Assembly: GCA_012026655.1 (NCBI GenBank)
Contig: JAAILG010000225.1
Coordinates: forward strand, 1-64,000
Direction: 5' to 3'
DNA from: Hydrolagus affinis
Taxonomy: Eukaryota
Length of the DNA: 64,000 nucleotides
Shown: in pieces, positions 12,896 to 64,000 of the stretch
Layout: each line of letters opens with the position of its first letter
How positions within the stretch are numbered: the stretch's first letter is position 1
Position numbers and translations under genes: made by a program
The notes under the pieces: generated by a model
Seen by the model: the letters and a program-made list of their open reading frames with translations, nothing else
Database searches by the model: none
Told to the model about the DNA's origin: nothing

Positions 12896-13754
12896 ATGTT
12901 GGATCACTGTCTCTATGCAACAGCCTCTGTACATGTTTTATGAAAGGTTTTCACTGGTATCAACAAAGAAAGCAAAGCAAAAGTTACCAAATCTAAAAGT
13001 TGTCTATTGCACTATTCAGACGCAATTCCTATTGCGCTAAAGCAGCTTCCACACACTACCAGGGTAACTAGGTTGTGCAAGGGAAAGTGATGGGTAGGTC
13101 ACTCAGTACAGCATCCTGTGGCCCTCTCGTGTTATGGAAAACTTTTAACTCCATTGTGACACCATGTCTCTGCGAGTTATTTTCCTTTGCCTGTCTTCTG
13201 AAGAAAGCCAATTGAAGCCCCACTGCTTGTCGCGTAGTGCTGTGATACAACCAGTGCCTTGGCTTATCCTTGCTTTATGCATGTCAACAGGTATGATGGG
13301 ATTGGTGTTTCATCAGCCTTCTAATACTCATTGCCCAGAGGAGCCAGGTTATTCTGACATTGCTTACCTTGCACTATGGCTCATGGGCTGTACGATGACA
13401 GGACAAGTTGTAACTGGTTCAAGTGGCGTATTGTTACCCAGCCACCGTGGGAAATTTGTGTAAAATCGCTCTGTCAGGGAGGTGTGCGTGTGGATTATAA
13501 ACAGATGTTGCCCAATAGCTCAGTGGTACCCATTCATTTCTTTAGCCACAATCGGGCAATCCTTGTTTTGAATGAACAGTACAGTAGTCTGCTGAGGCTC
13601 ATGATTAATCAGCACGTTTCCTTCTAAATTGAGTGGTGGCTTTTACACTGAGACCTCACTTGTGGCAGCAAAAGGAAGCCAGACATATGAAGGAATGATT
13701 TAGCTTCCGATTGTTGCTGTGTGTGTGTGTGTGTGTGTGCCAAGATACAGAGAA

Positions 13755-14135
13755 ACAACAACTTGAATTTCTCAGGGGCTTAACAATGGCAGAGCCCGAG
13801 GTCGAGCCAATGGGATGGGGAAGGTGACTGTAAGTGCAGTTGAAGTGAAAGATCTTCAGCTGTGATCTGAAGATGGGGAAGGAGGCAGTGAGGCGAAAAG
13901 GTTGAGGGAGGGAATTCCAAAGTTTCAGGGCAAAGTGGCTAAAAGCACAGCCGCCGACAGTGGAGCGGAGGATTCGGAGGACAAGGAAGAGGCTGGAACC
14001 AGTAGAGCGGACACAGCAGAGACTGCTGTGAGGAGAGAGGAGGTTAGAGAGGTAGGGGCGTGCAGAGGAGTGGAGAGATTTAAACACAAGAATGAGGATC
14101 TTGAAGTCAATGCTCTGTGATAGTGAGAGTGGAGT
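13755..14135 (-). mobile_element. L2 LINE 3' fragment (ORF2 C-terminus)
   Basis: Encodes IDFKILILVFKSLH..PYLSNLL..GGCAFSHFALKLWNSLP, typical of the L2 ORF2 end. Confidence 0.9.
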
Positions 14136-15119
14136 TTGGCAATGACTGGGGTAATCATGGTTCGCATACGTCAGGTGCAGTGGGGTGATGGTGGGGTGGG
14201 GGAGAGGAAATAATCTGTTATATATGATAGATTTGCTTCTGATCATTAACTAGTGTCTTCCACCCACCACCCCCAAACCCCCACCCAATAAATGCCACAT
14301 TTGTAATGTGATTAATTGTCTTGGGAAGAACCATTCGCAGGGGCAGAGTTGGATACACGAGAGAGAAATGACTATAGGCGCAGGCTAGGAAGAAGTGCAT
14401 TACCCTGCATTCCTAAACTAATTTGCTGACACCTACCCCCCCTCCCACACCCGCAAAATCTGTACGTGTTGATAATAATATTGACATAGCGCCTTTATCG
14501 AGTCATCGAGACGAGTGCCGTGACTGTGTGTTTGGTGGGTGAAAGCTGACTGTGATGTCCAGTGAAGAGCGAGGATTGGCTGGACTCTGCCATGGTGCTT
14601 TCCGAGTGATTAGCCGAGTGAGTGTCAGAGGAGATAACAGGCACTTTGGTAGGGGTTGGCGTGGATGTCTCGTCTCGCGAGTGAGTCACTGCCTGCAGGA
14701 ACGGGCGGGGAAATATAATGGTTGAGTTACCAGGGAAGAGGCTGAAATCGAATCGGCAGAAGCAGCTCACAGATTCAGTCTTAAATGTCAGCTTGAAGGT
14801 TTCTAAAAAAACATTATATTGAAAAGTGCTAAGAAGTATGTTGACCTTTAGAGAGATTTAGTTTCATTATGAAGTAACAATCTAATAAGCCTGTTAGGAC
14901 AAAGTACCTGATCAGTCAGAAGCAACTAATCCTTTTTTTCATTTACGAGCCAGAGCAATACACACGTATAAAGCAATAATTTATTCGCTAAAGAATCCTC
15001 GTGTAGTTTTCAACACAAAGGACGTTCTTGCAGTGGAGTAATGGTAGCTGGTTGGGTAAACTATGGAAAGTAATGTATCCTGGCCAACAATGCCCCTGAT
15101 AAAATGTGTCTTTCACTTC

Positions 15120-46965: not shown

Positions 46966-47367
46966 TGGTGGAATGGTGAGGTTGCTTTCAATTTTCTGGT
47001 TTTCGATGTGCTAAGGCTCTATATCAAATGTAAGGATTATTATTAGGATTATTACTATTATTCTGCAGTGCGTGATCAATCCTGTGGTTATGACACTATC
47101 TAACACTGACTGTTCCATACCTCACCAATCAAAGTTTGGAAGGATTATACAAAAGTACTCGCTGTTTGTGTTTCTAACTCTCTTCCTCCTGTGCTTTGCT
47201 CCTGGGTTATGCCAATTTACCACTGTCAATTTTCCAGGCAGCTTTTGGCCCAATGCAGATACAATACACCAGCACAACCTCGTGATTTAACACCAAGAGA
47301 AGGCACTGAGCTCTGCGAGATTAAACTGTTTAGTTCTGGAGATGTGTTAGAAGCAAGGAGGTCGATA

Positions 47368-47505
47368 GAATAATAATAATCCTTGCATTTGGTATAGCGC
47401 TTTTCACGTCTTCTAGACATCTCAAAGCGCTTCATACAATATACTATAAAGTGAATTGACTGTATATTTGTGGGCAATTGTCCCCAGCAGAATTCCACAA
47501 ACAGT
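47368..47505 (-). mobile_element. SINE tail
   Basis: Family tail in reverse orientation, low divergence. Confidence 0.9.
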
Positions 47506-49307
47506 CAACAGGCAACAAATAGATGTCCAGAAATCTCTTTCTGAAATAAGCATTTTGTAACCCAGAGCCAATCTGATAAAATGTGGAAGATGTTAGAACT
47601 TTTTTAATTCAATTTGTTTTCTGCCTCTTTGCCGCGGCTGCCATCATGAACATTTATAGGTCGAGAAGGCTCCATTCCAACTGTTTCAAGCCATCTATAG
47701 CCTGGTCCCCTTTGCCCAGGCTGTGTATGGTTGAGCGGTGTGTGTAATGACTCACATTTGTATCTCCAGTTAATCCAGACGGAGTTCAGGTGCGTTATAC
47801 TTGCCGTAGATTCTCAACACAATGTAGTTTATCAGAGTGATGCTTGCTCCTTTTGAATGCTTGGTTTCTTGTTGAATCTCACTCAGGGATGAAGGGGTGG
47901 GTGGGGTGGAGAATCGGGTGGGTTTATAAAAAGTTTCATCTATTTCTCCGCAGACCAAACTCTGGATTCAGGAACGGCAGCTTCAAAGTCTCAATATGTG
48001 GCTTCAGTTAAGAATTTGTATTCCCACATATGTTTAATCTCTCAAATCTCACTCTCTGTGCTCTCATATTTTAGTGCTCTGATGTGTTAAAGCAGAATTT
48101 CTATGTGAGCCTTCCCCTTCCCCCCAACCATCACCCATCACACACAAGAGTAGCTGGCTGTGTGTTCTATGCTCATACAGTAGTTGTATTTTTGTTATCT
48201 AATAGTGAAGTCGCAGTCTGATCTTAGTCTGCAGGCTTGCCTTCTGCTATGACGGCCTTTTGATGTGGACTGGAAATTGCCATATTTTATTTCCATCTTG
48301 TACCAATTGGATTTTGGAATTGATTGACTCGCAGAAGCCCGGGAGGATGGACCAGGATGTGTACATGCTGGAGACATTAGCTGCGAATGATCACTGCACT
48401 TGAAAGTGGATCCTGCAAAGTGCTTTGGGATGTTTTGATGATGTGATAAGTCGCTCTTAACAAATGCAGAGATTAATTTAAATTCAGCAGTAAATTTAGG
48501 AGTTTGAAAGTTTGCACAGGTGGCTGGTCTGGGTGACTGCAGATGCTCTATAGGACTCGCTTCTGACATGAAAGACACTTATAGAAATGTAAATTATAAT
48601 GCATCTGTGCAATAGGGAGAGCTCTACTTGGGTCTGAGGAACACTAAATAGCATTGCAACTGTGGACCACATGAGGAGAGTGTTCCATTCCTGACAGTTG
48701 AAACAACTATCTCACAAATATTCTTTCTGGCATTCTCTGCTGTTTTCCAGATATATCATATAGCGCAGCACCTCAAAGGGGATTTCTACCCAGGCTTGGT
48801 CAGCTTTTTCTGAACTGTTTGGTACATTGTCTTAAAAATGAAGGTCTGAGTTGTCCTGAATAATTCACAGCACATCATAATTCACAGGACACAAGAATAT
48901 GTTTTCATGCGTCGAGAGGATGTCAACAAAGAAATCTGTCCAGTCAGCAGCAAAGTCCGAATGACTGAATGTGAAGCTCTGCTTTGAGCAAAACTCTGTG
49001 CAGACAAACGCCAGCTTTGGATAAAGGGTAGAGTGAATGAATCATCAATCACATGTTGTTCTCACTGGGAGACCAAAGGTGCATGGCAGAAAAATGGTAA
49101 TGGTTGTCCTCAAACCAATACAACAGCAGCCTCGGGGAGCCTGAGATTTCACTGGAACAGAGACGATTAAGATGGCATCTTGTAGAGCTATTCAGAGATG
49201 TTTTTGTTAAGATTTTGAGTGGATCAGGAGCGGAAGATTATTCCTACTGTTTTGCTAAGCTGCCACAAATGCCATTCTCTGCACCCGTTTTATATAAGTA
49301 AGTTGTT

Positions 49308-49313
49308 TTTATT
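49308..49313 (-). promoter_or_regulatory. Candidate polyadenylation signal (AATAAA) of the minus-strand gene model
   Basis: tttatt on the plus strand, 240 nt downstream of the predicted stop at 49553. Confidence 0.35.
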
Positions 49314-49552
49314 GCACTAGGTTTTGGTTGGTGCCACATTCATTTTACCACCTTCTTGATGCCTGGCCCCCGAGACGTGAGAAAGCAAGCGTATGTTTCT
49401 TATTTTAACCTCTGCCGAGCTCAGTGTAGAGATCGGAATTGATCAACGGTCCATGAGAATAGCTGGATAACGAGCAAAGGATTCTTACCATTGCTTCAAA
49501 ACTGCCTGTGCTCCACCACCGGCCTCCTGGAGAGTTCTTTCGGCATGTGTGG

Positions 49553-49597
49553 TTAGTATTTAGCAGTGGTGGTCTGAATAGTGAACACCTCTGCTTG
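49553..49597 (-). CDS. Putative terminal coding exon of an unidentified gene (QAEVFTIQTTTAKY*)
   Basis: Acceptor atttcacctttAG|CAA; phase 0 matches the previous exon; TAA at 49555-49553; AATAAA downstream. Confidence 0.35.
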   Translation of the reverse strand, partial: QAEVFTIQTTTAKY

Positions 49598-49607
49598 CTA
49601 AAGGTGA

Positions 49608-49870
49608 AATAATATTCCTTCCATTTGATACAGTACCTTATCATATCACCGATGCGTCTCAATGCTCTTCATGGGATATACTGTGAAGTGGATCGACTGT
49701 GTATTTTGTGGACGAAACTCGATGTCCGACGCACGATCTTGGAATAAATGACCAAGATCATTTTTGGGTGGGTGGGTGGGGGGAATTATTACCTCCGGAA
49801 AGCAATTCACCAATCAAGCATAGAAAGACCAAGGACCATTACGGCAAACCGCCCAAATGTCCAAGCAGAC
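49608..49870 (-). mobile_element. Long-subfamily SINE, diverged
   Basis: Tail at 49608; middle ggaattattacctccggaaagcaattcaccaatcaa. Confidence 0.75.
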
Positions 49871-49914
49871 GAAGAGATCAAAAGCGCAGTGGAGCTGAGC
49901 CATCCTTACCCCTT

Positions 49915-50078
49915 CCAGTTTAGTCATTCAATCCATGGCTGTTTGTGAGTCATTGCCGTGCATAACTGCTGCGTTTTGCCCACAAAATACACAAGTCAAT
50001 CTATTTTACAATAGATCCTGTGAATCCCTTTAGAGACGTCTCAATGATGTGATAAGGCGCCGTGTTAAATGTAAGGTT
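49915..50078 (+). mobile_element. SINE 3' half
   Basis: Family body and tail. Confidence 0.85.
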
Positions 50079-50650
50079 TCACCTGCTCGGGTGACCCCGG
50101 CAAGAGTTCTTGGACGTGTAAGTGATTTTTTTTCACTGACAGTTTACAAGTCAGCTCATAAATCATGCAGAAAGGTTTTAACAAAACGCTGACACTTCCA
50201 GAGCTGCGAGCGAGTGCCCTGAGTGACTTTTATCTCTGCCCCTTTTTTTTTGTGTTCTTCTTTTATGCTTTTAATTAAAGTGTTTCTTTTATGAATTTAA
50301 ATTGCAAGAATCAGTGAAATATGCTTCTGATTTACTGTTTTAAGTTTCTAGCCTTCCTACTTTGCTATCACTGTGGGCTGATGCGTTGATGTTTGTTCAA
50401 TTCTTCCATCTCAGTCCTTAGGAATTTTTGATAAGAGAATCGATCATCCAGCTTAATATTGACAGCAGTATTTAAGAAGCACATTCCTCTTTGTGTTTCT
50501 TTATTGTCAATAAATATATTTATATATAAAAAGAATAGATGTTTATCCTGGGATTGCACCATCAATTTGGCAAATTCATGTGTTAATGACAAGCAAATAG
50601 CTTTTTGTTGCCGCACACTAGAGAGCTGGAGTGTTTGATGTCTGACTTAC

Positions 50651-50868
50651 CCTTGGCCGGGTGCCTTGGTCTCTGAAGGCGGCGACGTCTCGCAAGCTTA
50701 GGTTGAACCCCTCTCTCGTCCCGGCAGCCCGAGACAGATCTATTGACTGCTGTAGCACGCGAGACGGGGAGGCTGAACCGTTTGAGTGCACATCTGGAAT
50801 GATGGCAGAGGTGTTGTGTCCAAACCGGTTTGACTGAAATCTCCCCCGCAGGCGAGCCAAGACGTTTG
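50651..50868 (-). CDS. Putative 218-nt internal exon of an unidentified gene
   Basis: Acceptor ttttgtttgtaaAG|CAA and consensus donor AGG|GTAAGT; GC/CpG-rich relative to its flanks; open frame NVLARLRGRFQSNRF...DQGTRPR. Confidence 0.55.
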
Positions 50869-51189
50869 CTTTACAAACAAAAAGCTGGGGGAAAAAATCT
50901 TACGCGAAACCTGTGTGCAGGTTTGCCTCTGAGTGGCAAACCTGTGTGCCTCTGAGACCCTGCCCCATGTTAAAGTTGCTATATACATACAAGCTGTTGT
51001 TGTTGTCTTCCGAGGAACTGACGTGTCAAAGTGTGTCAAAGCTACCCTTGTAGCTCGGATGTCTCTTTGCCAGAATGTGAGGATTTTCCCCACACCTGTC
51101 CCATTTCAATTTCCAGTTTGAAGCCAACAACAGTGACAAAAGTTCCCTGCTGCTCCTCTGATTTCTCACCAATCCATTCATTCCTCGAT

Positions 51190-51370
51190 AATAATATTAT
51201 AAATAACCCTTGCATTTGATGGAGCGCCGTATCACATCGTTGAGCCGTCTCAAAGCGCCTCGCAGAATATACAGCAAAGTGAATGGACTGTGTATTTTGG
51301 GGGTGCAGCCCGGCAGCCAGTTAGTTGCCCATAAACAATGGTGCATTGAATAATCAAATTATTATTTTTG
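51190..51370 (-). mobile_element. SINE 3' half
   Basis: Family tail in reverse orientation. Confidence 0.8.
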
Positions 51371-51437
51371 ATCAAGCCCCTGTCCCACCATTGGTTGGCC
51401 ACCATTAACTTCAATAACGTGTATGTGCCTCACTTCC

Positions 51438-51442
<5 letters not shown>

Positions 51443-51473
<31 letters not shown>

Positions 51474-51480
51474 CTCTCTC
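51443..51480. repeat. (CT)n microsatellite
   Basis: Seen directly in the sequence. Confidence 0.9.
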
Positions 51481-51871
51481 ACCATCTTCAAGCAAGCTTT
51501 TTTGGGGTGTGCTTTTGTGCGCCATGCTTTCATTTTCCTTTTTTCCATGCTTGGCGGGTGCTCCCAGTTTGTCATTAAGCTCCAAGGCAGTGTGTAAGTG
51601 CTTGTTGTTGCACTGATGCAGAACTGCCCGTGTGTAACAATTTTTCGCCATAATTGTAGGGCTTTGATTGATGCCTGCGCCTGGACCACTTCCAAACTGA
51701 AGTACTTTGTTAGTGTTGTTGCGTTCTCTTTCCCATAAAGCTGTCCTCCTCTTCCCTTCCTCTTGCTTGAGTTGGCTTCTTTGGCCGAAAGCTATTCTGA
51801 CTGGACGTGGCTGTTCTCGACTCATGAGCCAGAACTGTGTGGGTCATCTCAGCTGGCTTCTTAATCACGTC

Positions 51872-52035
51872 AATAATAATCATAATAATAATCCTTGCAC
51901 TGGATATAGCGCCTTATCACGTCATTGAGACTTCTCAAAGCGCTTCACAGAATAAACTGTCGAGTGAATTGATAGTGTATTTTGTGGGGGAGAAGCGGCA
52001 GCCAATTGCGCACAGCAATGTCCCACAAACAATTG
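51872..52035 (-). mobile_element. SINE 3' half
   Basis: Family tail in reverse orientation. Confidence 0.9.
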
Positions 52036-53074
52036 ACGGGCAACAAGTGAATGTCCAGAAAGCTCTCCCTCAGACCACATCCTGCTTTAAATCAAGCCGC
52101 CTGCACCGAGTTTGATTTATAGCTGCAATATCCTGAAACCCATGTGATCCCTCCTGGAAAAATCAACAGAGGGTTCGTTTAGATAAACTGCAAAACCTTG
52201 ACAATGCACACAAACTCCACATCAAACATAGCTGCACTAACATTAATGTGTGTGCTGCGGGCAGCTGCAGTGATTGCACACGTCTTGCTGCTTTTTAAAC
52301 CGTGCGGCTGCTCGCGACTTTTCAAGGGTACAATTGAGATTAGTGGACTATCCCTCCAGAACACAGCTGCTTGAATGTTCTGGCTGATATGCTATTTTAT
52401 TGAAAAAAACATAGTATTTTTGCTGCATAAATGAGCAGTGCTGCATGGCACAAAAAAAGTGTGTGCTGCTTCGAATGTTTTCATTTGAAAGGCACTTTGA
52501 ACGTTGAATGTGGAACTGAACGAGTTATAAACAGAGCCAATTCCTCACGTCTGTGGCTTCTTTCCACTTTTTCACTAACCGTTTACCTTTCCTTTTTGAA
52601 ATGTGTTGGGCGTTGATGATTTTTTTTATTAACGATCGGATTTGTAACCATTTGCAACGCAATTTACGTTGGTAGAGTGCCTTTCCTCGCAGGAGGACGT
52701 CTCAATGCGCTTGTCAAAATGGGGTGGGTGCCTGGGTTGGGGTTGGAGCAGTGGGGAGCAATGAACGAGGAAAAGTGGGGACTGAAAGTGCAGTCAGTCA
52801 AAGAAGTACATTATTTTTTAGATGTTCCTTAAAGTTACAGTTTCAAGTTACGTGCGTCAACTGCACATTTAAGGTGACTGACTTCAGGCAAACAAAACTG
52901 AATGAGTCATTGGGAAGCCCCGAGGCTCTCTGTTGACGACTGAGCGTTCCTTCTCGGTGCTGAGTGGACAAGGAGAGGACAATTTGCTAGACATTCATTA
53001 AGTTCATCCCCGTGGCGCAAGGTTTAAAACTTGTGTAACAGACACCAGTCCCAGAATCCAGGAGCCGTCTGCTC

Positions 53075-53085
53075 ATGAGTCAGCA
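53075..53085 (+). promoter_or_regulatory. NF-E2/NRF2/BACH-type site (ATGAGTCAGCA)
   Basis: Exact match to RTGASTCAGCA; a second AP-1 site at 52903-52909. Confidence 0.35.
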
Positions 53086-53444
53086 CAGGTGAGACTTGAC
53101 TTGTAATGGGCTGTTCCCTTCCGTGGCAAGATGAGTTGGAACATATTTTCTCTACTGTTTTTTACCTTTTGAATCCAGACTGTGATGCAACACGAGCTTT
53201 GTCATTAAAATAATTTGTCTTGTGTTCAAGATTTTTCCCAAAGGTCATGAAGGTTAGGTTAGCTCAACCAGAACCTGCACTTAAATAGCACCCTCCACGC
53301 AAGGGTAGAGTTTTAGAGGTCAGGTCAGGTCTCAGTGCATAATATCCCACTCGTATACTTAACTGCATGAAGCCCCATTGTCTCATTGTCCCCAGCGCAT
53401 CGGCTGCAAGATCCTTGCTCTCACCTATACAAGGCTATTCTTAC

Positions 53445-53482
53445 CCTCGACCTCCCTGTAGTTGAGGGTTAGCTTCATTGTC
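53445..53482 (-). CDS. Putative 38-nt internal exon (TMKLTLNYREVE)
   Basis: Strong acceptor tttttttacttctttcccaAG|G and donor AGG|GTAAGA; phase 2 in and phase 1 out match both neighbours. Confidence 0.5.
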
Positions 53483-53651
53483 CTTGGGAAAGAAGTAAAA
53501 AAAACACAAGGTTCTGGCTCCTGGCTCCTTTCCAGTGGCTTCTGCGAAGCGCATAAGCATTGGCAGCTCCAACAAAGCCGGGAACACGTTTATAACTGTA
53601 AAACCTCCCCCCACTGTTGTGGACATTTGCCTGTTGATGGTTGTGGCTCAC

Positions 53652-53698
53652 CCATGGAGAATGGCCACTCGGATGAAATGCCAGAGAGTCCCGTGGAG
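53652..53698 (-). CDS. Putative 47-nt internal exon (LHGTLWHFIRVAILH)
   Basis: Donor TGG|GTGAGC; acceptor aacAG|C preceded by a long C-rich tract; phase-compatible with its neighbours. Confidence 0.45.
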
Positions 53699-53731
53699 CT
53701 GTTCATCAGCGTGTCATTCAGGCGATGTGAA

Positions 53732-53782
53732 GGTGGGGGGGTAGGGGGGTAGGGGGTGGGTGGGTGGGGGAGGGGAGGGGGC
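53732..53782 (+). repeat. G-run tract with G-quadruplex potential
   Basis: At least seven runs of three or more G separated by 1-2 nt loops. Confidence 0.75.
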
Positions 53783-54427
53783 AGAAGGTAGACTCGGGGA
53801 TTCTTTTCTTTCTGAACAAAAGTGACCACAGTTGGAAGTCCTCTGGAAAATCCAGGCAGAAGCCTGGGATTGCAGGTCTCCAGATGGACTCAGCGTGTGT
53901 GAAACTGCGGCTCGGGCCAGCCAGGGGCTCCTGTGTGCTGTGCGCTGATGGTGTTTCCAGGTAACTCAACAGAGTGGAATTGTAATCGCATGACAGTGTG
54001 ATTCAAGCAGTTATGGTGATACGGGAGGAGGGGGCATTACCATTAAAGCCTGCACATTACAATGCAGCTTTGTTTTATAAGGTATGTGAGGGTATGTTAA
54101 CTGTGCGAGTGCGTTGGACCATAGAATAATGTATTGTATTTGATTTTAATGGATTTAAAATTGAGCATATGTGACCATTGCTCTTTTTGGGATGAGGCAG
54201 GAGCAGCAGCTGGACACCAGAAGAACTCTCTGCTCTTTGAAATGGTGCAGTGGGTGTTCTAGGCATGCTGGGTGGGAGGCAGTGTGGGGTAAAAAAACAA
54301 TATGGTCGCTGGAAACCTTTCTGCTCATTGCACAAAAAACATTCTTCTCTCTCTACAGCTAATAGTTCTTATCCACACTCCATCCAAACCCCTTCTGGTA
54401 ACCAGGAAGAGTTAGTTTAACTCTTAA

Positions 54428-54570
54428 TAACAAGAACAATAAGAAGAATCATTCTTGCCTTTGATATAACGCCCGATCACATCGTTCAGATGTCTCAAAG
54501 CGCTTCACAGAATGTATTGTAAAGTGGATTGACTGTATTTTGTGGGTGAAACGCAGCATCCAATTGAGCT
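54428..54570 (-). mobile_element. SINE tail
   Basis: Family tail in reverse orientation. Confidence 0.85.
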
Positions 54571-55279
54571 CAATGACAATAGAAACTCCCATCTATATAT
54601 ATATATATGTATAAGCCTTAGGTGTGTGTATGTGTGTGTGTATATATATATATATATATGTAAATATATTTAAGCCTCAGCTTAAAAAAAATCCAACAAA
54701 GAAAAACAACCCAGTGATTAAAGCTCACCCTTTTTTTTGTAAACAACAAATACATTATTTTGAAAAAGTTTCAAAATATATGAATAAACTCAAAAACACT
54801 AGGCCGCGAATGTTATGCAGGGGTATAGCTAGTTACTGCATGAATTGTTTGCTTTAGCTACTGAAAAGTGGTGTCCAGGATGGGGGAGATCTAAAGAGAG
54901 GGAGAAAACCATTCTCTCTACTGAGTCTGGAGAGCCATTTCCTGCCCGCAGGGTCTTGTTTCCTTTTCTGCATTAGTCCTGTGGTTGTGAATGTGTACAG
55001 AGGCTCTGTGTTTGGAGGTAGCTGTGTGTGTGTGTGTGTGTGTGGAGGTGGGGTTACATCCGTTCCTGCAGGACACTTGGATTCTGAGGGTTTCCTTTAG
55101 TTCTGTTTGAATTTCTTTTGTCGGCAGTTTTTATTTATTCACCCAGCGGGAGACATTGGGTCTATTCCGCAATCCCTAACAATCCCGATCTTTTCATTGC
55201 ATACTTGCAATGGGATTTCCTGTTAAATCAATGGCCACATTTAGTAACCTGCATGTGTCAGATGCCTGTCAACCTAATC

Positions 55280-55565
55280 AACAAAAAGTTGCATTTGTAC
55301 AGCCTTTCATGCTAGAACGACATCTCAAAGTGCTTCATGGATGTATATTGTAAAATGATGGTGTTATTTGTAGACGTATGAGTCAGCGCATCTGCACACA
55401 GCAATATCCCACAAACAGCCATGTAGTGAATCTATTTTATTTGGGGGATTGTTGGCTAGGACACTCCCTGTTTATTGACTGGTGCCATGTGATCCTTCAT
55501 GTCCACCTGAACAGGCAGACAGGACTTCAGTTTAAGTTGGGGAGTGGGTTTGAACCCACCCTTTT
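55280..55565 (-). mobile_element. DeuSINE, diverged
   Basis: Tail, then ttggctaggacac, gtgccatgtgatcc.tcatgtccacctgaacaggcagacagg and the head gggtttgaacccac. Confidence 0.7.
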
Positions 55566-55696
55566 AATAAGATTATGCAAAACTGACCTGCTGTATTTCC
55601 AGTGTTTTGTAATGTCCTGGTCAGTGCAGTCACTACTACAGTATAACTGACTCAAATCACCAGAGGACAAAGTGCCTGGTAGCGTCTATTACTTAC

Positions 55697-55732
55697 AGCT
55701 CTGTAGGGCGAGTGTGAAACAAAATCCACCTT
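55697..55732 (-). CDS. Putative 36-nt exon (KVDFVSHSPYRA); 33 nt if the second AG is used
   Basis: Donor GCT|GTAAGT; tandem acceptor TAG/AAG with a branch-point-like GACTAAT about 30 nt upstream. Confidence 0.4.
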
Positions 55733-56009
55733 CTAATTCATTTGGGATGGATAAGGACCATTAGTCGGGTTTTATCCAAAACATAAATCCTGTTTTTTTT
55801 AAGTTGGGGGAGAAATATGATACTGCGCCCAGACTCCTTTCCGGGAAATTAAATTCTGGTACAATCAGGAATTAGTTTGAAACACTGAAAAATCTCAAGA
55901 ACTAAAGCCAGTTACTAACAAACCTCAAAACACAGTCCGTTGGTTACAGTATCCTGGGAAAACTAATCCATCAAAGGTAAGTATTATTATTATTATAAAT
56001 CATTAAAAT

Positions 56010-56109
56010 NNNNNNNNNNNNNNNNNNNNNNNNNNNNNNNNNNNNNNNNNNNNNNNNNNNNNNNNNNNNNNNNNNNNNNNNNNNNNNNNNNNNNNNNNNN
56101 NNNNNNNNN
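56010..56109. other. Assembly gap (100 N)
   Basis: Run of N. Confidence 1.
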
Positions 56110-56406
56110 GCAAATGGAATAAATGGACTAGAATTTTAGTGGCAAACGGGAACTGTTCTAGCTCTTTGGCTTCTGTTTGGCATCACAAACAGAGGATAAA
56201 ATGCTTTTTTTGTACAGATGTGTATTGTATTTTTAGACCCTTTATCAGCCCCACATTCTGTCACCAATTTCATACTTTCAAACTCCAGGGCTGCTTTCTT
56301 TAATAACCTCACTTAACTCGGTCTTCCCTTCATTCCTTATTTTTACTCTCTCTTCTATTCTTTTTCTCTTCTTTCACAAAAACGCATCCTCTTTCTCCCA
56401 TTCTCT

Positions 56407-56488
56407 TCATAGAATCATAGAATTTACAGCACAAAAGGAGGCCAGTCAGCCCATCGTGTCTTTTCCCAGCTCTTTGAAAAGAGCTATT
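56407..56488 (-). mobile_element. CR1 3' tail
   Basis: tcatagaatcatagaatttacagcacaaaaggaggcca..cagccca; same family as the 31451 copy. Confidence 0.9.
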
Positions 56489-57200
56489 CAACAGCAACAA
56501 CAAAATTGCACTTATATAGCGCTTTTCACGTCGGAAGGACGTCCCAAAGCGCTGAACAGTCAGGTTGGGACCTGCGAGGGGGTGAGGAGGGTTAGGGTTG
56601 GGGGAAGGAGAGTAGGAGAGGGGAAGAATTAGTGGGGGAGCTGAAGGCGCGGTCGAAGGGGAAGGTCTTGAGACCGGCCTTGAAGGAGGAAAGGCGGAGA
56701 GGCTGCGGGATGGAGTTCCACAGTGTGGGAGCAGAGCGGCTAAAAGCCCAGCCGCCGATGGTTGGGCGGTTAGGGCGGTGGACGCGGAGCAGGCCTGAGT
56801 CTGCTGAACAGAGGGGACGGGCGGGCTGATAGGGAGACAGTAGGTCAGAGAGATAGGTGGGGGCAAGGCCGTGAATGGTCTTGAAAGTGAGAACAAGGAT
56901 CTTAAATTCGATCCTTTGGGTGACGGGGAGCCAGCGGAGACGGGCGAGGGTGGGAGTGATGTGGTAGTGAAGCCTGGTGCGGGAGAGTACACGAGCTGCA
57001 GAGTTCTGAATGATCTGCAGCCTGTGAAGGGAGAAGCTGGGGGGGGCCGGCGAAGAGAGAGTTCCCGTAGTCGAACCTGGAAGTGATAAAGGCGTGGATG
57101 AGAGTTTCGGCAGCGTGGGGGGTGAGGTAGTGGCGGAGTCTGGCAATATTATGGAGATGATGGAAGACTGTGCCGGTCATGGAACGGATGTGGGAGAGGA
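56489..57200 (-). mobile_element. L2 LINE 3' fragment (longest copy, frameshifted ORF2 C-terminus)
   Basis: HLHNIARLRHYLTPHAAETLIHAFITSRFDYGNSL, then LQIIQNSAARVL..HITPTLARLRWLPVTQRIEFKIL..AFSRSAPTLWNSIP. Confidence 0.95.
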
Positions 57201-57289
57201 AGGATTGGCTTCGAGAGGTGGAGAAGCCAATCAGGAATCAGGATTCAAAGTCAATCCCACTTCCCGGCTCTCTCCCCATAACCCCACAA

Positions 57290-57600
57290 ACCTGTCCACC
57301 CCTCTTATTTGAAACTTCTTGCTCAACGGGCTCTAACCTGTTCCATATCCCTCACCGTGCACATCACACCATCGGTGGTCAGGCCTTCAGCTTTTCTGCA
57401 CCTGCCCCTTGGAACTCAATCCACAGGCCCTTTACCTCGCCCCCTTCCTTGTCTCCTTCAAGGCCAGTTTCAAGACGTTTCTTCGACCGTGTCTTCGGTC
57501 AACCTCCTTCCCCATCTTCCCTGCCTGCCAGCACTCCTGATCCCAACCCCTAGCTCAGGCCCAAATCCTTGACTGTCCAGTGCCTTGGGACATACTTTAT
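57290..57600 (+). mobile_element. L2 LINE 3' fragment
   Basis: Encodes TIGGQAFSFSAPAPWNSI; tail ctgtccagtgccttgggacat. Confidence 0.85.
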
Positions 57601-58304
57601 CACGATTATTCTTGTAGACATTTTTTTTTCTCTAATTTGTTCTTTGGAGCTGAATGTCTTCAGTGAGTTGCAACTCGCCCACACATACTTCCTGCATCCC
57701 AGCTCTTCTCCCTGTGCAATTTGTGCCCTATTACCCTATGCAAACCAAGCAAGAGACCTGATGATTGCTGTGCTGTGCACCCGACCTCTGTTAATGCATC
57801 TCTCAAGTCCCTTGGTACACCCCAGCTATGTCCAGAATGGACCACATTAAATGCACTTTTCACCACAAACACATACAGTACTTTGAAATGGTGCGCTGTC
57901 CTTTGGGTGAAACATACAACGGAATTTACATCTGCCTATTCATGTGGATAATAAGAATCCCATGATCACAATGACAATCGAAAAGAGAATGACGTACAAT
58001 GAGACATTCGCTTCATGGCTTTTTGTGGGACTTTGCTGCGTGTCAATTGCTGATGTGTTTGCCTACCAAAGCAGTACCTGTGTTTGAAAGCAATTCTCCG
58101 TGAAGGTGTTTAGGCGATTTATGTGCTGTATCAAATGCAAGGGTACATGCAAGGATATACTGTACATACTCATGGCTTAAATCTAGTGCTCTGTGCCATT
58201 CTCCTGCATGTTTCTAAAGTTCTGTGGGATTGTACCTGCTGGGAGCTTGGTTGGTTGCCCACCCCTCAGTCGGGAATGATAGTGAACATGAGGAGAAATG
58301 CGTT

Positions 58305-58540
58305 GCAGGGCAAACCCTTGGGCAAGTTTCCTTACTCCACACGCCTGATAATAATCCCTCAAAAAAAAATTGGTTGCGTCAATCCACGACTGTTTATGGG
58401 ACATTGCTGTGCGCAATTGGCTGCCGCGTTTCGTCCATAAATATACAGTTGATTCACTTTACAGTATATTCTGTGAAGCGCTTTGAGATTTCTGGAAAAC
58501 GTGAAAAGTGCTTTATTAAATGCAAGGATTATTACTATTG
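58305..58540 (+). mobile_element. Short-subfamily SINE lacking the tRNA head
   Basis: gcagggcaaacccttgggcaagtttccttactccacacgcc through the tail. Confidence 0.92.
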
Positions 58541-59085
58541 CAAGTAAGGCACTGTTTGCTGAACGCTTTGGTATAAAACCAAGCATCTGGATAATTAGCT
58601 GATTTTTTTTGTCTGATCTAGTCATTTCTGAATTTTAACTGCACGGATATTTAGAGTTCTTTGTTGAAACTCCTCTGTCTGTCTCCGCACTGTTTCCGGA
58701 CAGACAGCTGGAAGGCATCATTTAGCTTCCAGGCGTGCCTTGATGCTGTTCCCTGACAGATTGCTAGGAGCAGAGCTTGCTCAATATTCAGCAGTCGATG
58801 TAAAATCTGAGCAATGGTCGTCTCCCATTTATACGCATCCCACAATTTAGAGGCAGGGGGTGGTGGGTATGGAGGAGATGTAGGAGAGCAATTTGGGATT
58901 GAGTTGTCCCTTTCACGTACACACCCTTCCTGTGTGGAGAATGGTTTAGCTGCATTGCCGCTATGACCTGGATAGAGAGGAGTTGGTGTAATCACCCGCC
59001 CCCTCAGTCTGGCTCTAGACTGTGGCTCCAGCCCCGCATGCCTTACAGTGAGGCATCATCTGCCATCATTCATAAAACACCTTAC

Positions 59086-59127
59086 ACGGGATACAAGCCC
59101 TGACGCAGGAATCAGCTCCTTCCCCAT
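59086..59127 (-). CDS. Possible first coding exon (MGKELIPASGLVSR); exon may start at 59193
   Basis: ATG at 59127 with in-frame stops upstream; donor CGT|GTAAGG in phase 0; acceptor tttccAG at 59195-59194; separated from the other exons by an assembly gap. Confidence 0.25.
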
Positions 59128-60044
59128 TGATGGGACGTCTCTCTCTTCACAATATTGCAGGATTTACAATTATTTTAAAAGTCCCACAATGTGCTGGAAA
59201 TCATTTCATTATCGCAGTGCAAGTATTCAGGCAGCATTATTCAAAGCACGTTGAATGTTGGACTTCATTAACAACACACCCTTGGCATCTTCCCCACCCC
59301 ATTCCCTATTTTCTTTTTAAAAAAATACCAAACTAACATTCCAAACATTCTCCCTCATGTTGGTTGGAAAGGATAAGTATCTTAAAGTTAAGTTGGACAG
59401 GTTTTTTTTTTACTGGGGGTGAAGCAGAGAGTCTGAGCAACAGTGACTGTGAAGGTAATACATGGTCAAGGTTGTCTGTCTGTAGCCCACAAGACCAGTT
59501 TAAGTGGGAGGTGGGAGGGTCGAGAGGAGCTGATTAGAGTGGGAGATATACAGAAGGGAATAGTGAGAGATATTCCAGACTTGTATTTCCTTTTGTTTTC
59601 TCTCCCTCCCGCCCCCTCCTTTTCTTTATTGGGGGTCAATTGTTGGCCGGCTTTACTTTTGTTTGCATTATTCCTGTGGTGCTTTAGAAAAATAATAAGC
59701 GAGAAATACCTTGTTTGTTCAGAGCCTGTGGACTGTCGAAGCACTAAATCTCTTCCAAGTGCTAAAAACCAGCATTGTGCAGTTTAGAAAAATGCCTCTT
59801 GGGGCTCTTGACTATTGGGTCAAGAGTTTGCCTCGAATAACACGATAGTTTGGGTCTGATTCGTCCCTGGCTTGGCCTTGAGCTCTGAATCCAAGCCGAC
59901 CTGATCAAATCCCTTTCTTTTAATAAAAATTCTACCGAGTGCCGTGTTCAAATCAACTCCAGTCCCAAGAAGCTGAGGACATTTGAGAATATTTTATTCT
60001 TGATCAGGCATGCAAATTGTTACATTAAAGTGGGAAGGAGTGGA

Positions 60045-60195
60045 AATGACTGTTTGTGGGAAACTGCTGTGAGCAATTGGCTTCAGAGTTTTGGCCACAA
60101 AATATACACTTTATAGTATATCGTCAAAGCGTTTTGAGACGTCTTGATAACGTGATAAGGTGCTATATCAAACGCAAGGATTACTATTATTATTA
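60045..60195 (+). mobile_element. SINE 3' half
   Basis: Family body and tail. Confidence 0.85.
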
Positions 60196-61221
60196 AGAAA
60201 TATGATTCTGCACAACAGAAGCAACAACAGCTTGCATTCATATCAGCCCTTCACACAGGGTTGTGTCTTGGGAGTATTTAAAAATATAAAAAGATAGCAA
60301 ATGTTAAATTGGATTTTATTATACAGTATGTATACCTTGAGCACTGTGGGAATAATGTAACAAATAAATTAGTTCTATATACTGTATAGTGATGCCATTC
60401 AACTGATTGTACATATACTTTTTACTGTAAAGACCCATTACTTTGTGTGATAACTGCTGGTGTGTAGTGTTGAGTCTACCATATGGAAAAAATCAGGTTG
60501 CACGGGGTCAGGGATGCTTAGATACAGTGTTGGGAGTTTAGCCAGGTGGTTGGAAATTGAAATCCCAGCCTCGATGGACTTCACCTTCGTGGCTCCTCAT
60601 TCTCTCAGCAGGAGGAGGACGAAGATTAAAGCATCTGTAGAAATATGAGTGTTCATTCGAATGTGTTGAATGGTGAGCCTTTGAAAGGGGTGTGCACTCT
60701 GGGTCCCAAATTAGATACAACAACAACTTGCATTTATACAGAGACACTCATGCAGGCGAAAGTCCCAGAGTGCTTATGTTGTATCCATCCAAATAAAACT
60801 GGACCAACTACAACTGGATAGCAGTTGGCATGTTATTAATTACCAACAAGATAATGTGGACTGCTGCTAATATGAGGAAATGCGATAGTGCCGAGCAGAG
60901 TCGAGGCAAAGATTTGGGTGCGATACCAGGCCAGACGGTGAAAGTTACGTCTGCTTTGAAACTGAAACTAGCTGGAATCAAGCAAGTATCAGAAATTTTC
61001 AGTGTGATCTATCTCTGTTCTGGTATGGCCCCTCCCACCACAGAGTTAAATTTTATTTTACCCAAAAGTAGATTTGCTGAGTGCAGCTGGTGTTTGTGAC
61101 ACTGGCTGACCACGCTAAAAGACTGGGCTGCTTATCTTTTTTTTAACATGCAAAGCACGTGGTATAATGTCCCAATTGGTGAGGAAAGCAAGGGATGTTC
61201 CTCCAAAACAAAATGTGATCA

Positions 61222-61335
61222 AAATAACCCTTGCGTTTGATATAGCGCCTCATCACATCATTGAGACGTCTCACAGCGCTTCACAGAACACATTGTAAAG
61301 TGGATTTGACTGTGGATTTTGTGGATGAAAGTGTA
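61222..61335 (-). mobile_element. SINE tail
   Basis: Family tail in reverse orientation. Confidence 0.85.
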
Positions 61336-62254
61336 GAATAATTTCTATTGTATAACCAGAGAATGTCAAAGTCATGCATGGTCTTTGCTGAGGTAAGGGT
61401 AATTGGAGGAATAAATTATTCAAATCTTTCTTCTGCAAACCCACCTGAATGCACGAGGCGATGGGGGTCCCACATGCTGTCGTCATTCTACGAGGCCCAA
61501 GCAAATGGATGAATGTTGTTTCTTGCCACAAATCTGTTTCTCCCAACAGTGATGTGGGCAGAAGCCACAAGTCTTTTTTCTAAAGCTGTGATTAACACAT
61601 GCTTGAATTGAGTTTTACAAAAGGAAAAGAACTGGGGAAGGGATGGTTCCATGCCTTAATCCACAGCCGTGTTGAATTCTTTGACACATTTGTCAAAGTT
61701 GAGTTGTGCCACATGAGCCTAGGTAGGTGCAGGTGGGATTTGGGAAACCAATTTGGTTACTGTCGTCCCTTCCTCTCCTGAGCTGCCTCATCCAAGATGC
61801 TGTTATTCACATTATTGGGAGAGTCATAATAATAATAATAATTATTATTATTCTAGACGTCTCAAAGCGCTGCATGAAATATACTGTCATGTGGGGCATT
61901 CTCAGTCATCCCAGCCCGATCCACCTCTTATCTGATGCCTTTTCAGTCCCTGGTATATTGGCCTCCTTCAACTAGCTACTGTATTTCTAAACTCTGCTCT
62001 GGAGTAAGAATAAATTAATGTGACCGGACAACTTTTTTGTGAAGTGCACTATAAAATCCCCAATCAGGTCCGGAAATGGGCTGAAGACATTAGGCCTCGT
62101 CAGCGGGTTGAGCTTATTGAGTATTCTATTACATAACACACTGAAAGGAAAAAGACTGATCAGCGCATTGGGGCATGTTTAACCGGGTGACCTGTACAAG
62201 ACGAGTTTTCATTGCATGCCGGGATTTCTTTTTGTTGTTGTTGTTGTTGTTCAC

Positions 62255-62340
62255 ACTCCCCCTGTGCAGCGCCTTGGGACATCCTCCCGACGTGAAAGGC
62301 GCTCTATAAATGTAATTTGTTGTTGTTGTTGTTGTTGTTG
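62255..62340 (+). mobile_element. Young L2 3' tail
   Basis: Identical to 23497-23570 over 74 nt; (gtt)n on both sides. Confidence 0.9.
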
Positions 62341-63065
62341 GGAAATTCAACCGAAGAGCTGCAGTTTTGTGCTTCCAAAGGAGGAGGAGCTCAATGTGGA
62401 GCTTTTATGAATATTTAACTGGACCGAGTCTCTTGATGGATCGCGTTTAATGCTGTGACCCTAATTAGACACGGCATTGAAAGCCGTGAGCAGCTTCAGC
62501 CATCTGACAAGCCTGAATGATCCAGAAAAATAGCCCTGGAATTTCAGAACATTCCGATTGTGACTAGTGACAACTTAAGGCCGCATCCCCTCTGATTTAT
62601 TACTCGCACTGTTAAAAGTTTTCCATTCCCAATAAAACTCCGTGCCTGTACATCTCCTTTGAACCGACACATCGTATTTGTTTTCGTGGGATGAGCAGAG
62701 CGTGGGGTAGGAAATGGAAACAGAAAACGCCAGTTTATCACAATTGCCTTGGACTTGTCACTCGCCCGAGTGCTGACCAGATGTGGATGATTGTTTTTTT
62801 TCATGATTCCTTTTTTTGAAAAGTCTTTGTTTAGTATTGGCAGCGTCCAGCAGTTTTTGGAGCTTGTATTTCCTGCATGTGTTGCGCATCAGCCAGTACG
62901 GAATTTAATATGATAGAAGCTCTTTTCCAGAAGGCTTGTTGGTTGAGACATTCCAGGACAATGACATTGCTTTATAGCTAGATGTTAAAGTTGGGGGGTT
63001 TTATGTGTGTGTGTATGAGTTTCATTTGTCCTTTTGGCCTTCATTTGTCATTCTTTTCTTTGCAG

Positions 63066-63129
63066 GTGTTTTCATTGTGCTGCACGTTTCTGATTCTCGT
63101 CACCTGAATGCGCCAAGCTTCGTAGTCAG
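63066..63129 (+). other. Candidate 64-nt exon, probably 5' UTR, of an unidentified plus-strand host gene
   Basis: Very strong acceptor (long pyrimidine tract ...ttcttttctttgcAG|G) and donor CAG|GTCGGT. Confidence 0.4.
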
Positions 63130-63224
63130 GTCGGTGTTCTCTGTGTCTGTCCATTCTGATTTTGTGGGTGAGGTTATGTGCCCATCGAGGTGGGGCAATG
63201 GGCTAGTGCTGGAGGATGGAGAAT

Positions 63225-63290
63225 AGGAACATAGCAAACACAGGAAAAGGAGGCCATTCAGTCCATTAAGCCGGTTCCCCCATTTGATAG
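63225..63290 (-). mobile_element. CR1 3' tail fragment
   Basis: aggaacatag...aggaggccattcagtcca. Confidence 0.6.
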
Positions 63291-64000
63291 GCAGATATGG
63301 TATACACAGTGCCCTCGCTTTTGCCTTACCCCATTTATTTTTCTCTTTTCCAACCAGTGTCAGCATCACAGTCACATATAGTGTAGCCACGCACAGATCT
63401 CTAATCTGCTGTAAAAATCAGTCTTCACGCACACACATATCTGCCCTGCCTCATTTCAATAATGTGACCTCTCTCACCCCAGCCACTCTTATGCTGACTC
63501 TGTACAATGTAGATTGATTATTAGTGCTGAATGATGGACGGGTTTGTGTTGTGAGTCCCTGTCTGTCTGTCAGGCTAGTTTTAAAGTGCCTAAATTTGGT
63601 TAGCAATAAGAGCCTTACAGCTGACGAGAGACAGAACGAGCTGCCCCAGTGTTTTGGATTAGACTCTAGGCCATGACTTAGAGGTGAAAGTGCAATAAGT
63701 TTAAAATTCACTGTTACCCATTCTCATATTTCATTGGCTGCCTGTTAACCTTTCCTGATTTTCTTTTTTAAACTACTTCCAAGTAGAACAATTCATTCTT
63801 TTTAAATGCAACCAGCGACTATTTGTGAAGGAAAGATGGACTGACATTGCTATTTCTGCTATTTTAGAACCAGGATTAACAGCTTCAATGTGTCCCATAC
63901 ATTTTTGATACACAGTAGTGCAGTAAAAGTCACATAAGTCTGATCTGTATAAACTCCCAAGTCATACATCTGCCTGTCTCATTCATGTGTTTATATGTGT

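Follow-up and report, generated by a model that had tools for sequence, protein, structure and literature searches.

Does the minus strand of a Hydrolagus affinis contig (JAAILG010000225.1) carry a small spliced gene, or do splice-like signals there line up by chance? The question arises in a window of 64,000 nucleotides (positions 1 to 64,000 of the contig), where a six-exon gene encoding 141 residues had been predicted between 49290 and 59193. Re-reading of the sequence reproduced this structure exactly: the exons measure 42, 36, 47, 38, 218, and 45 nt with AG and GT on their 5' and 3' sides as described, the four named donors are GTAAGT, GTGAGC, GTAAGA, and GTAAGT, and that of the first exon is GTAAGG. 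The intron phases are mutually compatible and the joined coding sequence runs for 426 nt (141 aa) with no internal stop, so that in canonical GT-AG sites, phase, and open frame it has the form of a spliced protein-coding gene. The AATAAA hexamer at 49308–49313 (minus strand, where the background is 1.03 per kb) and the gap at 56010–56109 (100 N in the assembly) are also present as claimed.

The neighboring gene is SIPA1L1, which encodes a Rap GTPase-activating protein. It lies on the plus strand at 97.3–123 kb of the contig, and its first coding exon is 96% identical to Callorhinchus milii XP_007891444.2. The proposed exons are on the other strand, outside the SIPA1L1 coding sequence, in a region 38–48 kb upstream and separated from the coding start by an N gap. 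As the first coding exon begins at a strong acceptor, untranslated exons must lie upstream, and the four RefSeq accessions listed for SIPA1L1, which have one common protein, fit the existence of several 5' UTRs. The suggestion that the predicted gene is nested antisense in an intron of a larger gene is thus right as to strand, but SIPA1L1 exons flanking the region were not located. None of 120 SIPA1L1 protein queries matches contig 1–97.6 kb (one of the 120 has an N-terminal extension), and no CpG-island promoter was found in contig 1–96 kb. Pecanex, the neighbor expected from human synteny, is absent from the SIPA1L1 contig, all nine matches being on other contigs, and synteny therefore could not place the region. 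Literature searches found nothing on SIPA1L1-AS1, on SIPA1L1 untranslated exons or alternative promoters, or on lineage-specific genes of chimaeras or holocephalans.

The splice signals are of uneven quality. On a scale in bits, with approximate matrix values, all five donors fall within the range of real SIPA1L1 sites, but two of the five acceptors, at 55732 (−1.8) and 53698 (−0.8), are weaker than every one of the 14 real SIPA1L1 acceptors (3.3–12.7), so that as a set the splice sites fall outside the range of real sites in this genome; their tracts contain 7 and 8 purines, compared with 1–5 in the real acceptors. The 36-nt exon that depends on the first of these (55697–55732; codon score −0.01) is likely a decoy. 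The 47-nt exon (53652–53698) combines a good donor (7.4) with the other poor acceptor, is outscored by acceptors at 53842 and 53811 whose resulting exits break the predicted frame, and is overlapped by a strong plus-strand candidate exon at 53536–53732. The ATG exon (59086–59127; donor 6.0) has a codon score of 0.11, below the 0.37 of another frame, and is likely not real. Inside the first proposed intron, at 56592–57176 on the minus strand, lies an open reading frame of high repeat depth that we take, from its translation, to be a LINE-like reverse-transcriptase tail remnant; Pfam matched nothing in this translation. At the other end, the coding part of the stop exon (49553–49597) has a codon score of −0.24, and its acceptor (3.9), one of 23 downstream acceptors of comparable or higher strength, sits at the end of a copy (49596–49759) of the window's abundant SINE-like repeat, family D6.

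The two remaining exons form a more substantial core. Exon A (53445–53482, 38 nt) has an acceptor of 10.1 and a donor of 8.8 bits, a codon score of 0.34, and, at 53478, an ATG that could serve as a start and has A at −3. Exon B (50651–50868, 218 nt; codon score 0.31) is 59% GC with 16 CpG and has a donor of 10.3 bits; its acceptor at 50868 (3.5) is beaten by an inner one at 50793 (8.7), and both retain the frame.

Chains of this kind are nevertheless ubiquitous. With thresholds set at levels that the predicted exons barely clear, the candidate exons with an open frame in 49290–59193 number 175 on the minus and 182 on the plus strand. Six-exon chains from ATG to stop with an AATAAA occur in all 18 ten-kb strand-windows tested, at 2,982 to 16 million in each (stops created across junctions being left unchecked), and in 17 of the 18 the best chain exceeds the splice sum of the original prediction (53.1 bits), which removes the grounds for regarding that chain as more than chance. 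Decoy exons are reported to be about tenfold commoner than real ones in human introns (PMC3098058).

Codon usage separates the core from its surroundings to a modest degree. A blind model of splice sites and codons, from which terminal exons are excluded, picks exons A and B in the predicted frame with a score of 30.0 bits, where the 19 other strand-windows reach 20.5 at most, and does not select exons 1–3. Six of 44 further strand-windows exceed 30 bits, and these look by eye like real exons, LINE remnants, or simple repeats. For the joined coding sequence, the predicted frame scores 0.23 versus 0.07, above all five other frames, and this score is reached by 1–2 of 300 shuffles at first and second order but by 131 of 300 at third order, where the signal is gone. 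Exon B behaves similarly: it is mid-range among real exon pieces at the lower orders (24/43 and 19/43 score no higher), and at third order only 9/43 score no higher. The core thus exceeds background, with a signal that fades under the third-order model. The four outer exons jointly carry a weak codon signal (37, 30, and 81 of 300 dinucleotide shuffles score at least as high). With weak sites or little codon signal in exons 1, 2, 3, and 6, the six-exon, 141-aa gene is not supported; a spliced transcript on exons A and B, coding or not, is possible.

Homologs were sought with exon B (72 residues) alone as the query. Word searches found none among proteins of 127–2000 aa (0 of 97 candidates) or 39–126 aa (0 of 1), with holocephalan and shark proteins included; as a positive control, the same collection returned C. 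milii SIPA1L1 at 96% and eight shark and ray proteins at 78–80%. HMMER against 1.84 billion representative proteins gave seven matches and no genuine homolog, all seven being tandem-repeat proteins matched over 4–12 stretches at 26–40%, and were discarded. Five PDB matches to designed helical repeat proteins were likewise set aside, no stretch passing alone. Pfam returned nothing for both open frames and four other ORFs, the Atlas was blank for both open frames, and no Rfam covariance model reached its gathering score in 47000–64000. The Atlas recognition score was 1480, below the 2300 reached by 91% of known-family proteins, a score that is silent on whether the gene is real. The protein was called unrecognised from the start, and for exon B we agree.

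The RNA data comprise three runs of a single sample, each read to about 30% and without a positive control. Depth was 0–0.07 in all three on the bin covering 157 of the 218 nt of exon B, and no junction read for the proposed exons was seen among the 15 rows listed of a 12,560-row joint table dominated by repeats. No RNA holder was listed for 49200–56000, which is uninformative on expression. In run X3, about nine reads at 49.0–49.6 kb extend past the AATAAA; their first mates map to the minus strand, and the usual mate convention takes this as plus-strand RNA. A relative, X1, spans the exons and diverges little near exon B, with 14 changes over 1.4 kb; this was rejected as a sign of constraint, unique DNA at 47.8–48.4 kb being equally at 1%.

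We somewhat favor the interpretation that the six-exon model is a chain of mostly chance splice-like signals in non-coding DNA upstream of SIPA1L1. GT and AG sites of such strength would recur several times per kb, and short exons would nearly always be stop-free in some frame, so that any 10 kb would offer a phase-compatible path from ATG to stop. The predicted path was probably anchored on the GC- and CpG-rich exon B, with its excellent donor, and on the strong site pair of the 38-nt exon. On this interpretation the pieces would not be spliced into a stable transcript and no 141-aa protein would be made; the CpG-rich patch may serve the SIPA1L1 upstream region as a regulatory element, or be what remains of an old coding sequence. 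We count for this interpretation the ubiquity of equal or better chains, the two poor acceptors, the weak outer exons, the lack of an exon B homolog, the near-zero RNA depth, and the codon signal lost at third order; against it stand the blind pick of the core, a frame ahead of the five others, the shuffle ranks and mid-range position of exon B at lower orders, and the confinement of the RNA to one partly read sample and of the homolog search to exon B.

A spliced antisense lncRNA opposite SIPA1L1, built on the core exons and perhaps on donors 53652 and 55697 with other acceptors, is a less probable alternative. Three good donors are grouped with two strong acceptors on one strand within 3.2 kb, exon B is unusually CpG-rich (14 CpG is reached in only two other places among 1,916 windows, and both are repeats), and no protein homolog would be expected. 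All four internal exons are also open throughout in a second frame, as GC-rich DNA permits, and the open frame could be a by-product of high GC; such an RNA, if it acts, may do so by transcriptional interference with upstream SIPA1L1 promoters. The missing junction reads and near-zero depth speak against it, as do the X3 reads and the lack of a CpG-island promoter. We regard as rather unlikely a small holocephalan-restricted protein gene, antisense in the SIPA1L1 5' region and with no annotated shark, ray, or elephant-shark counterpart. It would most likely start at 53478 and comprise exons A, B, and a short last exon (about 97 residues, or 141 if upstream exons are coding), the product being predicted to be basic, rich in Arg, Ser, and Ala, and largely disordered, either arisen de novo or too diverged to be recognised, and perhaps confined to a narrow tissue such as testis. 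The blind pick in the matching frame, the frame-keeping acceptors, and the favorable ATG agree with such a gene, as do a core codon score within the range of held-out SIPA1L1 exons (0.03–0.58) and the finding that only three stop-free pieces, all LINE-derived, out of 287 in 96 kb score as high. Against it are the lack of an annotated relative even in C. milii, the low Atlas score, the third-order result, and the sole visible coding difference in X1, at 49582 (read by hand, X1 differences being listed up to 50305), which changes Thr to Ala. The idea that the exons are a piece of some known gene family or of an intron-bearing transposon is already disfavored and most improbable: exon B is coding-like in composition and the gap could conceal a recognisable part, but DNA and protein searches of the genome found exons A and B in a single copy (one match, itself; counts are lower bounds), and the Pfam, Rfam, PDB, and SIPA1L1 searches gave nothing to support it.

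Among known systems, decoy (pseudo) exons of vertebrate introns (PMC3098058) come close; the resemblance to our locus lies in abundant exon-length AG...GT pairs of plausible strength whose use is unsupported, and the difference in two of the six exons here, which have CpG enrichment or codon bias beyond local intron windows. The locus also resembles vertebrate opposite-strand nested or overlapping genes in its compact multi-exon layout opposite a large gene, but here the inner transcript and the position in a SIPA1L1 intron are putative; most such overlaps are reported as non-conserved between lineages (PMC2151771; PMC8467205; PMC4394429).

If the chain is a decoy, it shows only that gene models with compatible phases are easy to draw in large vertebrate introns. 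Chimaeras are the slowest-evolving lineage of jawed vertebrates, and if the core does code, the gene would be an orphan among proteins that change slowly (SIPA1L1 being 96% identical to that of C. milii), so that undetected homology would be a poor explanation and de novo origin a reasonable one. Orphan genes nested antisense in others are a known kind, and even then the core would be a new member of that kind and not a new system.

All six exons in the original prediction of a minus-strand gene at 49290–59193 (59127–59086, 55732–55697, 53698–53652, 53482–53445, 50868–50651 and 49597–49553) are present with their splice dinucleotides, join into a 426-nt frame of 141 aa, and are followed by AATAAA at 49313–49308, as had been proposed. 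Splice sites were scored with approximate vertebrate matrices calibrated on 14 real SIPA1L1 junctions located via protein alignment. The predicted donors score 5.8–10.3 bits, inside the real SIPA1L1 donor range of 4.2–12.5, and the acceptors at 55732 (−1.8) and 53698 (−0.8) fall below all 14 real SIPA1L1 acceptors (3.3–12.7). The proposed last acceptor (49597) lies at the end of one SINE-like repeat copy. In the 218-nt exon (50868–50651, exon B), an in-frame inner acceptor at 50793 is stronger than 50868. Translation starting in the 38-nt exon, at the ATG at 53478 (A in position −3), would give a 97-residue product.

With thresholds set where the predicted exons just pass, 49290–59193 holds 175 open-frame candidate exons on the minus strand and 182 on the plus strand. 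ATG-to-stop six-exon chains with AATAAA were present in 18/18 strand-windows, and the best chain exceeded the predicted splice sum in 17 of the 18, in a count where two windows overlap slightly and junction-spanning stops were left unchecked. Compatible phases and an uninterrupted frame therefore carry no evidential weight here. These counts agree with a published statement that decoy exons are about ten times as numerous as real ones (PMC3098058).

What stands out is exon B, with 16 CpG at 59% GC; among 1,916 sliding windows, only two other places, one a LINE-like remnant and the other an inverted-repeat element, have at least 14. A CpG-rich MITE-like element, its long inverted arms judged by eye, lies at 73450–74000 of the contig, beyond the window. 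Under a second-order codon model, with exons of SIPA1L paralogs and pecanex as the training set, exon B scores 0.31 bits per codon, within the 0.03–0.58 of 18 held-out SIPA1L1 pieces; of 287 stop-free pieces of background, three score as high, each derived from a LINE. Much of this codon signal is GC content, since a plus-strand frame of the patch reaches 0.27. In a leave-one-out test on 43 real pieces, exon B equalled or outscored 24, 19 and 9 of them at first, second and third order. A blind chain finder, with two LINE remnants masked and terminal exons outside the model, picked 53482–53445 and 50868–50651 in the predicted phases at 30.0 bits and left the first three exons unpicked; it reached at most 20.5 bits in the other 19 strand-windows and 63–101 on four SIPA1L1 controls. 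Six of 44 further strand-windows exceeded 30 bits, judged by eye to come from simple repeats, a LINE remnant, and real exons left unmasked together with their shadow; two more reached 29.1 and 25.8. Of 300 dinucleotide shuffles, 4, 9 and 131 reached the score of the two-exon core (53482–53445 and 50868–50651) at first, second and third order; for the four outer exons the counts were 37, 30 and 81. The coding signal of the core is modest and model-dependent, and it comes from a spot already chosen as the best among twelve strand-windows.

Repeats are plentiful in the window. A SINE-like repeat of ~150–200 nt has at least 22 copies in these 64 kb (22 in family D1), in both orientations (for example at 2302, 24906, 47411, 51924 and 58379), and in all three RNA runs its first mates were more often opposite the strand ending in the T-rich tail, by up to ~1.8 to 1. 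Two stop-free minus-strand remnants (13656–14249 and 56592–57176) have no Pfam match and presumably resemble a LINE reverse transcriptase ORF in its C-terminal part.

The window forms bases 1–64000 of a 123,272-base contig, C225, in a 1.11 Gb genome. Downstream on the plus strand, SIPA1L1 runs from ~97.3 kb to the contig end (97315–123272) and continues on contig C5314, with 14 junctions mapped against the Callorhinchus milii protein. The first SIPA1L1 coding exon shares 96% identity with that C. milii protein and 78–80% with eight proteins of sharks and rays, so the source is most likely a holocephalan. Because this exon opens at a strong acceptor (97315), and one protein is common to four listed RefSeq accessions of C. 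milii, untranslated SIPA1L1 exons are expected upstream. The region is likely nested within SIPA1L1. Three plus-strand candidate exons are flanked on either side by strong sites (47720–47789, 53536–53732 and 63066–63189), and some may belong to the 5′ UTR of SIPA1L1; the second overlaps the predicted 47-nt exon in antisense. No CpG island was found in 1–96 kb of the contig. A SIPA1L1 intron carries a duplicated GC-rich, purine-skewed repeat block (104000–104770), in which each strand holds long open frames. SIPA1L paralog exons lie on contigs C14859, C2036, C16539, C52865 and C39610, and Pecanex_C exons on five contigs (C2543, C6715, C111032, C118339 and C9344), none on C225.

A real antisense non-coding transcript built on the core exons, the pair picked blindly, is a tentative possibility. 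Contigs of a relative (X1) and three single-cell RNA runs from one sample (27–30% of each run covered) were mapped at 80% likeness; the RNA result is one of depth, not junctions, the joint table being filled by repeats. Across 50207–50807, a bin that covers 157 nt of exon B, the three runs gave depths of 0.03, 0 and 0.07, a weak negative from one sample without a positive control. Run X3 alone had a depth of 1.5 (~nine reads) on 49005–49605, first mate on the minus strand, and its reads continue past AATAAA, still present at 49096 and 48993. By the usual convention they are plus-strand RNA, although the library strand is not certain. At 48900–49600 these reads fall in unique sequence, in one orientation, and are absent from the other runs; they may derive from a single SIPA1L1 pre-mRNA molecule or from a few. 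X1 differs by 1–2% and spans the core exons; among differences listed to 50305, one lies in a proposed exon (49582, Thr to Ala).

A small lineage-restricted protein gene is unlikely, and among its possible forms the exact six-exon, 141-aa model is the least probable. The 72 codons of exon B in the predicted frame, single-copy in its own genome, had no match among proteins of 127–2000 aa or of 39–126 aa, and since the collection contains C. milii and shark proteins, a normally conserved, annotated ortholog should have surfaced; the blank may also reflect a tail that evolves fast, a gene missing from annotation, or conservation limited to the small exons. Seven matches in 1.84 billion representatives were repeat-protein artefacts, and PDB matches were designed repeats only. 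Neither open frame of exon B matched a Pfam family or the Atlas, and a known-family fragment is very improbable. We suggest that a chain of decoy sites, built around the CpG-rich patch upstream of SIPA1L1, is the most plausible reading, by a modest preference. The spliceosome would presumably not use these sites, whatever role the patch might have.
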